IMG/VR virus record: IMGVR_UViG_2645727946_000002
DNA from: a virus
Lineage: Duplodnaviria > Heunggongvirae > Uroviricota > Caudoviricetes
Length of the DNA: 30,333 nt
Strand: one strand, 5' to 3'
A program made the position numbers and the translations under genes. How positions within the stretch are numbered: position 1 is the stretch's first letter; each line of letters begins with the position of its first letter. Under the pieces are notes generated by a model. It ran no database searches, was not told the DNA's origin, and saw only the letters and a list, made by a program, of their open reading frames with translations. Positions 12,613 through 15,868 of this stretch are shown one piece after another.

Positions 12613-12656
12613 ATGTTATGCGCAATCGCATAATGTAGTCAATGCGAAATCGCATA
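12613..12656 (-). promoter_or_regulatory. PL promoter with operators OL1 and OL2
   Basis: Minus strand TTGACT-N18-TAACAT. Palindromes ATGCG-N4-CGCAT at 12618-12631 and 12642-12655, the same motif as at OR. Confidence 0.85.
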
Positions 12657-12775: not shown

Positions 12776-13114
12776 ATGAACAAATATGGGATCGCGGGGG
12801 CGATCATCGCCGGGGCATTGCTTGTTGCATGTAGTGGCAGCGATGATGATTTGATGGCTCGAGCCCGGCGGGAAAGGGACGTCCGGGCAATTGCTTTGTG
12901 TCAAGACTATGCGCGATCCAAAGCCGCCCATCCGAGTACGGTAGACTTTTCGCTCTTGGGGACGCGGGTCGCGGAGCAGTCGGACGGCAGCGTGATCGCT
13001 GCCTCAACCTTCACGGCGAAAAACGGGTTTGGCCTCGAGTTGAAGTACGAGGTAGCTTGCCAGGTCAACGGGAGCGGCGTTGTTGAAGCCGGCATTCGTG
13101 AGGCTCGCGATTAA
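12776..13114 (+). CDS. Immunity-region lipoprotein (112 aa), candidate superinfection exclusion
   Basis: Signal peptide with lipobox LLVAC. The mature part has two Cys and a HPSTVDF...KNGFG...YEVAC pattern. Confidence 0.75.
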   Translation: MNKYGIAGAIIAGALLVACSGSDDDLMARARRERDVRAIALCQDYARSKAAHPSTVDFSLLGTRVAEQSDGSVIAASTFTAKNGFGLELKYEVACQVNGSGVVEAGIREARD

Positions 13115-13387: not shown

Positions 13388-14146
13388 TCAGTGCAATGTC
13401 GGTTGCTTTGCCGCCTTGGCCAACGCAGAGTAGAGCATTGCGCTAGCCATTGATCCAATGATTTGCCTTTCGGTTTCTGCCTTCATTAGATCGCTGCGAT
13501 CGTCGATCACGACCCGGATCTTTGGCGACTCACCAGGCGCGCTCAGCACATCACCGAGCTTTCGCATCAATCCGCCGGTGGCCTGTGGGCTGGGGCTGAG
13601 GACGTCTACTAACTCACTGCCCCACATGAATTGGAAAGTGTACTCGTGATTCGAGATCCCTTTAATTTTGGGATTTCGGACAATTGGCTGGTCCGGCCTC
13701 AGAATGCGAAGGTAGTGCTCGACGTCATCCGCGAGGTTATTTACAGATTCGGGGACGCCGATCCAGGCGCGCTCCTGCTCAGCTAGCGCTAACAAGCCGG
13801 CCACATAAGCGGCAACCAGTGCACTGGTACTCTCAATCGGACCAAGTGCGCGTATTTCTCCGCTCGCCTCTACCGTCATTCGATGCTGCGCCAGAAGATT
13901 GCGGATTGCCGATAGCCGTCTGCCGTTGAACGGATCGATTCCGATCGAGCTCAGGTGGAAGAGGGTGTCGCCGTTGTCGCTGATAAGCGAGTGCGCGCCC
14001 TGTTCGATTACGTAGAGCGTGATCGCGCTGCCATCTGCGAAGCTGAACGGCGTCCCAATTTCGAACGCACGCTCACCGTTCACCGTTTTGACGGCGCGGC
14101 AGTCGTAAGCCAGCTTCCTGTGCAGCCATGCGCAGTCGATGTTCAT
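13388..14146 (-). CDS. DUF1828/DUF1829-like protein (252 aa)
   Basis: EIGTPFSFADGSAITLYV...LISDNGDTLFHL is DUF1828-like. C-terminal IKGISNHEYTFQF resembles the DUF1829-like restriction-endonuclease-fold segment. Confidence 0.75.
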   Translation of the reverse strand: MNIDCAWLHRKLAYDCRAVKTVNGERAFEIGTPFSFADGSAITLYVIEQGAHSLISDNGDTLFHLSSIGIDPFNGRRLSAIRNLLAQHRMTVEASGEIRALGPIESTSALVAAYVAGLLALAEQERAWIGVPESVNNLADDVEHYLRILRPDQPIVRNPKIKGISNHEYTFQFMWGSELVDVLSPSPQATGGLMRKLGDVLSAPGESPKIRVVIDDRSDLMKAETERQIIGSMASAMLYSALAKAAKQPTLH

Positions 14147-14598
14147 GATATTTGGATACTTCCGTCGAAGCTGATGTTCGATCTGTTGCAGAATACCGCA
14201 AAAACCTCACTCAGCGGGGTCTGGCAGGACAGCGTTACATCTTCCAGCGGCAACGCTTCGTCCCCGCGGTGTTCGTGCGGGCCATACAGCGGGCCGGCCG
14301 GGGCGTTGTGCGACCGCTTGTGCGCGGGCTGGACTTCAATTTGATGTACTCGCCACTTTACGCCTTGACGGAGAACAAATAACGTCGCGCTGGTTCGACA
14401 TGCATCGATCAGCATGGCGGCCTTCATCTCCACTTCGACCGTCATCCCGGGCAACGTCCCGCCGAGCTCGTCTTCAGGGCGAAGAACCGCCGCGAGGTAC
14501 CCGGCATGATTCTTTCTGGCCGTAAGTTCGATGTCGCCATGCAAGATTTTTCTCATGGCGATCAACGGCTCCGCTTCTGCGCGTGCAAGGTCTGGCAT
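14143..14598 (-). CDS. His-motif protein, DUF6978-like (151 aa), partner of the DUF1828-like gene
   Basis: Motif HKRSHN-x6-GPHEH. ATGA overlap with the downstream gene. Confidence 0.7.
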   Translation of the reverse strand: MPDLARAEAEPLIAMRKILHGDIELTARKNHAGYLAAVLRPEDELGGTLPGMTVEVEMKAAMLIDACRTSATLFVLRQGVKWRVHQIEVQPAHKRSHNAPAGPLYGPHEHRGDEALPLEDVTLSCQTPLSEVFAVFCNRSNISFDGSIQIS

Positions 14599-14781: not shown

Positions 14782-14827
14782 TTGATAGGCCAGTTTGTCC
14801 TTGGCAAAATGCTGTATAGATGTACAG
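14782..14827 (+). promoter_or_regulatory. Promoter with LexA (SOS) box
   Basis: TTGATA (14782-14787)-N17-CAAAAT (14805-14810) with an extended TG. CTGTATAGATGTACAG (14812-14827) matches the CTGT-N8-ACAG LexA consensus of beta/gamma-proteobacteria and covers the predicted start site. Confidence 0.85.
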
Positions 14828-14861
14828 TATTTTGCCAAAGAAAAGAAGACTAGGGGCGGTA

Positions 14862-15167
14862 ATGAGAGAAGAATCGACAGTGCGCTTGCGCTGCAGGCCG
14901 GGGGATTTAGCAATCGTGACGAAGTGTGGGGTTCCGGAGCGCATCGGATTGCTGGTGCGCGTCGTCGGGCGATGCACAGATGGAGGGTACGATTGGCTAA
15001 CGGAAGTCCAAGGGCGCGGCTTTCGCGGCCGCGACATCTATACCGGCGACATTTGCCTATGCAAAGAGGCGTTGATGCATGACTGGAACTTAACGCCGAT
15101 TACTGGGTTGGGTCCTCGATGCCAGCTCGACCAACGCGAGGTTGCGCACCTCCACGGAGTATCCTGA
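14862..15167 (+). CDS. SOS-box-controlled small Cys-rich protein (101 aa), candidate antirepressor
   Basis: ATG 14862 follows AGGGG (MREESTVRLRCRPGDLAIVTKC...). Its 3' end overlaps the cI 3' end by 68 bp. Confidence 0.7.
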   Translation: MREESTVRLRCRPGDLAIVTKCGVPERIGLLVRVVGRCTDGGYDWLTEVQGRGFRGRDIYTGDICLCKEALMHDWNLTPITGLGPRCQLDQREVAHLHGVS

Positions 15168-15570
15168 GTACTTCTCGCAGCGCGTTGAACGCGTCGGCCG
15201 GAATGCCGCTGCGATCCGCGTCCTCGATTGCATCAATCAGCAACCGTGCGGCATCGCTTCGACTTGTCCGTCGAGGAGCGATGGCAGCATGCGATGGTGC
15301 GGGCGTATCGGCTGCTGCAGGCATTCCCGCATTTCGGAAATCGTAAGTCCGGAGTTGTTCAACCGATACCCCGAAATGTTCCGCTATCGGTTGGATCGAC
15401 GCAGTCTTCGGGTCGAGGCTTTCACCGATAACAATTCGATGGATTGTCGATTGCAGGGATTTTGTCCCTTTTTTTTGGCCGAGCAGCTTGCCCAAATCAT
15501 TTGCGTTCGTGTTGGCCCTTTCCATTAGCCAATCAATGTTGCTTGCTATCAGGGTCTTGAAGGTCATCAT
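15100..15570 (-). CDS. cI: CI-like XRE repressor lacking the S24 peptidase domain (156 aa)
   Basis: N-terminal HTH (NANDLGKLL...QSTIHRIVIGESLDPKTASIQPIAEHFGVSVEQL). Divergent from cro across the operators. The C-terminus is short and helical, with no Ser/Lys peptidase motifs. Confidence 0.85.
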   Translation of the reverse strand: MMTFKTLIASNIDWLMERANTNANDLGKLLGQKKGTKSLQSTIHRIVIGESLDPKTASIQPIAEHFGVSVEQLRTYDFRNAGMPAAADTPAPSHAAIAPRRTSRSDAARLLIDAIEDADRSGIPADAFNALREVLRILRGGAQPRVGRAGIEDPTQ

Positions 15571-15576
15571 GGTGGC

Positions 15577-15652
15577 AGTATGCAAAGGCGCATAGCGCGC
15601 CTCAAGAAATAATGCGTAAACGCATTGACAGCTATGCGGTATCGCATACAAT
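15577..15652. promoter_or_regulatory. OR with three operators, PR and PRM
   Basis: ATGC(G/A)-N4-CGCAT at 15580-15593, 15612-15625 and 15634-15647. PR is TTGACA (15625-15630)-N16-TACAAT (15647-15652). PRM on the minus strand is TTGAGG (15605-15600)-N17-CATACT (15582-15577). Confidence 0.88.
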
Positions 15653-15658
15653 GGCGGT

Positions 15659-15868
15659 ATGGACACTCCAACTACCGCTTCAGCGCTTCTCGGCGACATC
15701 CGAATCCGACGTGGACTCACTGAAGTCGCGATAGCGCGTCGCCTCAACGTTTCCCAGTCCACCGTTAGTCGAATCCTGCGCGGCAAGTCCGACTGCAAGA
15801 GCAGCACGCTTGTAGCGATCCAAGCGTGGTGGCAAGAGCTCGCTCAACAGAAGGAGCTCGCGGGATGA
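15659..15868 (+). CDS. cro: Cro-like HTH protein (69 aa)
   Basis: HTH TEVAIARRLNVSQSTVSRILRG; first gene after PR. Confidence 0.88.
   Translation: MDTPTTASALLGDIRIRRGLTEVAIARRLNVSQSTVSRILRGKSDCKSSTLVAIQAWWQELAQQKELAG

Follow-up and report, generated by a model that had tools for sequence, protein, structure and literature searches.

Organisation of the immunity region

The window, that is, the whole stretch of 30,333 nucleotides that we analysed, is a prophage of Burkholderia that belongs to the phiE125/Stanholtvirus type. An integrase is encoded at its left end, and the window also encodes a CII-like activator, DNA methyltransferases, a ParB-like protein and a large terminase. The features considered here are the following.

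12618-12655: two palindromes ATGC-N6-GCAT, 10 nt apart, 2.9 kb left of cI
14782..14810, plus strand: sigma-70-type ORF promoter found by consensus scan (−35 TTGATA, 17-nt spacer, TG-extended −10 CAAAAT)
14812..14827: predicted LexA operator CTGTATAGATGTACAG, a perfect CTGT-N8-ACAG
14862..15167, plus strand: 101-aa ORF (P0003), from translation; candidate LexA-repressed antirepressor
15100..15167: tail-to-tail overlap of the ORF and cI, 68 bp, from the coordinates
15100..15570, minus strand: cI repressor, 156 aa (P0001), from translation; no peptidase
15151..15255, minus strand: C-terminal two-helix domain (CTD) of CI, residues 106-140 (AF2 helices 106-121 and 125-140; alignment A3)
15328..15570, minus strand: N-terminal HTH DNA-binding domain of CI, residues 1-81 (AF2 helices 4-81)
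15455..15477, plus strand: terminator-like hairpin followed by T8, within the cI coding sequence, found by scan
15580-15593, 15612-15625 and 15634-15647: three operator-like palindromes ATGC-N6-GCAT, between cI and cro
15625..15652, plus strand: PR-like promoter TTGACA-16-TACAAT (consensus scan, 11 of 12 positions)
15659..15868, plus strand: cro-like HTH protein, 69 aa (P0002; HTH_31 E 1e-8, HTH_3 E 6.5e-8)

The palindrome ATGC-N6-GCAT is found five times in the window, against an expectation of 0.98, and none of 100 shuffles contained five or more. Two of the three copies between cI and cro are overlapped by the PR-like promoter, and the HTH protein encoded to its right, P0002, also matches phrog_6831, a transcriptional regulator. 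Judged by its motif, the pair at 12618-12655 may be a second, OL-like operator region; it lies just upstream of a lipoprotein-like ORF (12776-13114). Our scan of the window placed no copy at the ORF promoter. The first operator lies at only 10 nt from the cI ATG (MMTFK...), on its upstream side, so that cI mRNA may start with a very short leader or none at all.

Around cI and the ORF, two blocks of nucleotide similarity to Burkholderia phages enclose a variable immunity cassette. Compared with phiE125, nucleotide identity extends over the promoter and the 5' end of the ORF, and returns only to the right of the HTH/operator/cro block. The left flank varies among related phages. Here, two leftward genes lie directly left of the ORF promoter (13388-14598, minus strand), encoding a DUF1828/DUF1829 protein (phrog_1960) and a phrog_2017 protein, neither of which has an assigned function.

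The repressor lacks an autopeptidase

The initial annotation had described CI as a 156-aa repressor devoid of the S24 autopeptidase, and our results bear this out. Besides its short translation, P0001 had no match in Pfam or NCBIfam, S24 included, and gave only weak matches to phrog_3 and phrog_8 (repressor/HTH) in PHROGs. Its AF2 model (alignment A4) consists of helices throughout. The N-terminal HTH domain is followed by a disordered linker (residues 82-105) and then by about 50 residues, made up of two helices and a tail that is disordered after helix 125-140. Size, an all-helical fold and the missing S24 match together rule out an S24 peptidase, and since the C-terminal domain is a helical hairpin instead, RecA-stimulated self-cleavage is not expected. 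We therefore count the predicted inability of CI to autocleave, as judged from the model, among the strongly supported points. An Ala-Gly in the linker (residues 81-82) was considered as a cleavage site and rejected, as it is not conserved and there is no peptidase domain to use it. Its HTH domain is of a rare type: in a collection of 5.8 billion proteins, the whole of CI had only two homologous clusters.

A conserved, predicted LexA operator at the ORF promoter

The LexA box CTGTATAGATGTACAG begins 1 nt past the −10 hexamer and covers the predicted transcription start. No other CTGT-N8-ACAG is present in the 30 kb window, for which 0.19 are expected; at least one was present in 17 of 100 shuffles, so that the single site is not significant by itself, whereas its conservation is. 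We drew relatives from phage records, one-genome-per-species contigs, IMG/VR contigs and 95 genomes of the genus. A perfect box was present at the equivalent position in 53 related loci, corresponding to 50 non-identical upstream sequences. Of the 40 convergent modules in the close clade, 37 have it upstream of the ORF, 26-57 nt from the start codon, with L003 and L047 as exceptions. It recurs in 15 modules that are more diverged, from 14 of 20 additional genomic loci, and in one locus of an organism of 57.5% GC.

When the 50 non-identical upstream sequences were aligned by anchoring on the box, the only positions conserved at 80% or more were those of the −35, the −10, the LexA half-sites and flanking TA/TAT. 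The −35 is TTGAAA or TTGATA and the −10 usually TAAACT, otherwise CAAAAT, as in our window, while spacer and flanks are variable. Invariant half-sites and promoter hexamers amid variable flanks point to selection on a LexA-repressed promoter. Chance juxtaposition of a box and an ORF with no regulatory role would be compatible with the shuffles of this one window, yet the comparative data contradict it: the box is fixed relative to the −10 across the non-identical loci, its half-sites do not vary, and the ORF protein itself is conserved (see below). We rejected this explanation as extremely improbable.

Two Burkholderia lexA genes each have two CTGT-N8-ACAG boxes in tandem just upstream, which identifies the motif as the LexA operator of the genus. 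The earlier proposal of a LexA box over the ORF promoter is thus confirmed in sequence, and we consider it strongly supported, from these comparisons, that the promoter carries a conserved LexA operator of the Burkholderia lexA type, to which LexA would bind in vivo at 14812-14827. LexA is the only visible input to this promoter, as no CI operator is present there, and within the immunity region we saw no other SOS input to the peptidase-less CI.

The box is absent upstream of three ORFs that are close family members: L003 (2800-3000), L047 (2300-2500) and L059 (1810-2010). Their upstream regions are unrelated, and a switch to another input is therefore possible for these modules; in two of the three, the ORF remains convergent with a CTD-type repressor.

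The ORF encodes a predicted small barrel protein under purifying selection

A Shine-Dalgarno-like AGGGG run lies 6 nt upstream of the ATG of the ORF. Homologues of P0003 fall into 79 clusters at 90% identity, every one of them named hypothetical, and a profile search with the ORF family reached 378 representative clusters. Neither Pfam nor NCBIfam gave a match, including the Tum/DinI, ANT, Bro-N, KilA and KilAC models, and searches of PDB sequences with the ORF and CTD profiles returned nothing meaningful. The sole PHROG match was phrog_2529, to which no function is assigned; it was weak (E 0.007), but seven of ten distant family members matched the same group with E values of 1e-6 to 3e-4.

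The core of P0003 (residues ~10-82, nt 14889-15107) was modelled as a small beta-barrel with an AF2 pLDDT above 90, followed by a C-terminal tail that is disordered and variable in the family. The core aligned with DSIF KOW6-7 (Z 8.1, rmsd 1.5 A over 57 residues), YorP (Z 8.1) and PsaE (Z 7-8), although Z scores of this size are common for small barrels. As criteria for a KOW/SH3-like assignment we used a five-stranded barrel and a GDxVxV-type motif in the N-terminal strand. The Pfam KOW model had no match in P0003, and the hits from Foldseek (PDB, BFVD), ESM Atlas and VIA were limited to generic small barrels and to phage proteins that are uncharacterised. The predicted fold is thus best described as KOW/SH3-like, but generic.

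The 72-codon core contains no indels among 39 loci, and its median dN/dS is 0.14 over 447 pairs. Together with the confident fold, these values indicate a genuine protein gene under purifying selection, and that the ORF is a real, conserved protein gene is strongly supported. The view that it resembles no known antirepressor family also stood: with no Pfam or NCBIfam match, only a weak match to phrog_2529 and a different fold, the sequence searches strongly support an unannotated family that matches none of the known ones. Its description as Cys-rich, on the other hand, does not extend to the family, where among 42 close relatives C11 alone is invariant and C22 nearly so.

Our literature search returned no description of the module, and the papers on phiE125-like phages that it covered mention neither LexA nor antirepressors. 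Sanchez-Alberola 2012 (PMC3323433) lists 'hypB', a hypothetical gene confined to Burkholderia and predicted to be under LexA regulation.

Convergent overlap of the ORF and cI

As initially annotated, the ORF converges on cI and the two genes share 68 bp (15100-15167). This stretch encodes only the disordered tails of both proteins. Overlaps of 14-107 bp are present in nearly all related modules, and mean pairwise identity in the overlap is higher in the CI frame than in the ORF frame (0.41 vs 0.29; 0.88 vs 0.67). The ORF tail therefore looks overprinted on the 3' end of cI. In most loci we found no intrinsic terminator between the ORF and cI on either strand. The hairpin at 15455-15477, on the ORF strand, is shared with the near-identical locus L023 and absent from most other modules. 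Judged by this position, the SOS transcript may end at the hairpin, in which case about 375 nt of cI would be covered in antisense.

This arrangement makes an antisense or collision layer on cI plausible, and raises the question of whether the switch might operate mainly at the level of RNA or transcription, with SOS-induced convergent transcription colliding with cI or acting in antisense and the protein as an accessory. Both the near-universal tail-to-tail overlap and the scarcity of terminators between the genes, with the terminator-like hairpin here lying ~290 nt inside cI, would fit such a switch. Strong purifying selection on a confidently modelled, indel-free core, however, indicates that the protein itself is selected, and RNA alone is therefore not the whole story. 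Moreover, the overlap is confined to disordered tails, with CI as the conserved frame, and looks like overprinting or compaction, while fast induction would still need the removal of pre-existing CI protein. We consider a mainly RNA-level switch improbable.

The repressor C-terminal domain is co-inherited with the ORF

Pairwise BLAST between the repressors of related modules was not significant, and we first took them to be unrelated; this was rejected, since alignment shows a common CTD. At least ten unrelated N-terminal HTH domains are paired with one shared C-terminal module of ~50 aa, with the consensus S..AR.LIDAI..ADK.G..AE.F..L...LRL; the tail behind it is acidic or proline-rich. Repressors with two other C-terminal types, that of phiE125 (PAGW..L...RAQVE.FI..LL) and that of L066/L067, likewise face convergent, overlapping ORFs with a LexA box.

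We scanned the 95 genomes for the CTD and found the ORF adjacent and convergent at 24 of 25 matches. Similarity of the ORF core correlated better with CTD similarity (Spearman 0.70) than with HTH-domain similarity (0.41), and in 37 locus pairs the CTD was shared (similarity >0.7) while the HTH domains were unrelated. Because the ORF follows the CTD when HTH domains are exchanged, the ORF, its LexA promoter and the CTD form one heritable unit; a second comprises the HTH domain, operators and cro, with the recombination boundary in the CI linker. Co-variation of the ORF and the CTD is also expected from simple physical linkage. A strict one-to-one match of ORF subfamily and CTD type was rejected, as phiE125-like ORFs pair with two CI C-terminal types; a single conserved docking surface is therefore not guaranteed.

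These patterns are compatible with a more general, and tentative, proposal: the LexA promoter, the KOW/SH3-like protein and the ~50-aa CTD could form a portable 'SOS-sensitivity cassette' that can be joined to any HTH domain, so that one antirepressor, docking on the shared CTD or tail, would serve many immunity specificities, with obligatory convergent, terminator-less transcription into cI adding an RNA-level layer.

At one locus, L061 (G030:C1:135500-141300), two complete modules lie in tandem, 1.3 kb apart; in each, the ORF converges on a CTD-type repressor and has a LexA box of its own. Of the two ORFs, the first is a weak family match (E about 1e-3).

ORF relatives outside the LexA/CI context

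A clade of the ORF family at 39-47% identity (L010-L018, L054-L056) is located inside same-strand operons of small early genes, and the distant relatives L019 and L082-L084 also occur in same-strand small-gene operons. None of these operon-type relatives has a LexA box or a convergent repressor at its locus, and a CTD-type repressor was not found in three of the four genomes with such relatives that we checked. The barrel fold is therefore not tied to the LexA/CI context. At locus L068 (2003-2585), a single operon encodes two neighbouring barrel-protein paralogues, and no LexA box is present.

The same relatives bear on the possibility that the ORF is LexA-regulated but has a target other than CI, either a host factor or a later phage step, with induction proceeding by another route. 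Cell division, RecA/LexA modulation and the transcription-translation machinery, the last through the KOW-like surface, can be proposed as host targets. A KOW/SH3-like fold is a general module for binding proteins and nucleic acids, which would suit such a role, as would early operons lacking an adjacent repressor or box in genomes that often have no CTD-type repressor. Yet a non-CI target leaves unexplained why the ORF overlaps the 3' end of 24 of 25 CTD-type repressors and why it co-varies with the CTD across swapped HTH domains, nor does the immunity region offer the peptidase-less CI a different SOS input. On balance, we regard a target other than CI as unlikely.

A model for SOS induction of the prophage

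Taken together, we favour with moderate confidence the reading that the ORF is a LexA-repressed antirepressor of a new family, following a logic like that of Tum of phage 186 and acting probably through the CTD. Conserved gene context and the co-variation of ORF and CTD suggest that CI is what the protein inactivates; its contact site on CI is likewise a proposal. The interpretation given in the initial annotation is, as a whole, partly supported.

In the lysogen, CI would occupy the three operators between cI and cro and the two sites 2.9 kb to the left, keeping the lytic promoters off, while host LexA, bound 1 nt past the −10, would keep the 101-aa gene silent. Upon DNA damage, RecA-stimulated LexA cleavage would free the promoter and the KOW/SH3-like protein would be made. 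It would then inactivate the non-cleavable CI without proteolysis, most likely by binding the two-helix CTD or the conserved tail and disturbing oligomerisation or cooperative DNA binding, whereupon PR would fire. Transcription from the ORF promoter would run antisense into cI and may further lower its expression.

Phages vB_RY3, vB_RY5, vB_E438, vB_E174 and vB_E264 were recovered after mitomycin C treatment (PMC12860723), and all five contain the module. The module is probably the DNA-damage wake-up route of a widespread phage group. If this is true, about 80 clusters of 'hypothetical proteins' with a LexA-box context would gain a function, and the mitomycin C response of prophages with peptidase-less repressors would be accounted for. 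It would also imply a modular repressor design, in which sensing and DNA-binding domains are exchanged independently, and would make induction by SOS-triggering antibiotics predictable for individual prophages.

Comparison with known induction systems

A few phages of enterobacteria are known to be induced by SOS indirectly, via LexA-controlled antirepressors. The sequence comparisons suggest that an unrelated, unannotated family has this role in a large group of Burkholderia prophages (the B. pseudomallei/thailandensis group and the B. cepacia complex). The likeness to 186 CI/Tum, Fels-2, N15 AntC and Gifsy consists of two features: the repressor has no autopeptidase, and a LexA operator precedes a phage gene. 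In those systems the antirepressor product inactivates the repressor non-proteolytically, and, by analogy, we propose the same here; because the 186-type repressor is inactivated by a LexA-controlled product, SOS induction is indirect. P0003 has no sequence or family relation to their antirepressors, and its fold differs (KOW/SH3-like barrel). Here, unlike in the 186-type systems, the gene is convergent and overlapping with cI and forms a cassette with the repressor CTD; to our knowledge, the antirepressor gene of those systems lies elsewhere in the genome. Beyond what the initial annotation described, the sequence comparisons show a portable repressor CTD that travels with the ORF while HTH domains swap, and ORF-family members whose operons have no LexA box. 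Inactivation of non-cleavable repressors by SOS-controlled antirepressors is described for Tum of phage 186 and for N15 (PMC10432266), and the work behind LexA-controlled antirepressor switches is cited there as Shearwin 1998, Mardanov & Ravin 2007 and Lemire 2011.

The Vibrio linear plasmid-phages (Qtip of VP882; TF-smORF modules) offer a second parallel, a small unannotated protein beside the immunity region that inactivates cI without proteolysis, with the input set by the regulator of the small-gene promoter (PMC10432266). There, the input is a phage-encoded transcription factor and is SOS-independent (PMC10432266), whereas here it would be host LexA. The small Vibrio antirepressors have no sequence relation to P0003. 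By analogy with them, the box-less L003, L047 and L059 might be 'other input' variants.

With lambda, the locus shares the divergent cI/cro pair with three operators and the plan of a repressor composed of an N-terminal HTH, a flexible linker and a C-terminal domain. The C-terminal domain is an S24 Ser-Lys peptidase in the lambda CI/LexA type, in contrast to a helical hairpin of ~35 residues here. The likeness to the immI region of P22 (arc-ant) is one of gene order only and concerns distant relatives: L082 (316-848) and L019 (2342-3270) encode barrel proteins directly after, or divergent from, an Arc-family gene. These two loci have no LexA box, and P22 Ant has no homology to the barrel protein.

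Finally, phi1026b has a different cassette in the equivalent genomic slot (L085, 43-44 kb). A 133-aa HTH protein, gp61, is encoded there convergent with a 105-aa helical ORF, gp60, which is unrelated to the barrel family, and no LexA box is present. This cassette is possibly another induction module.
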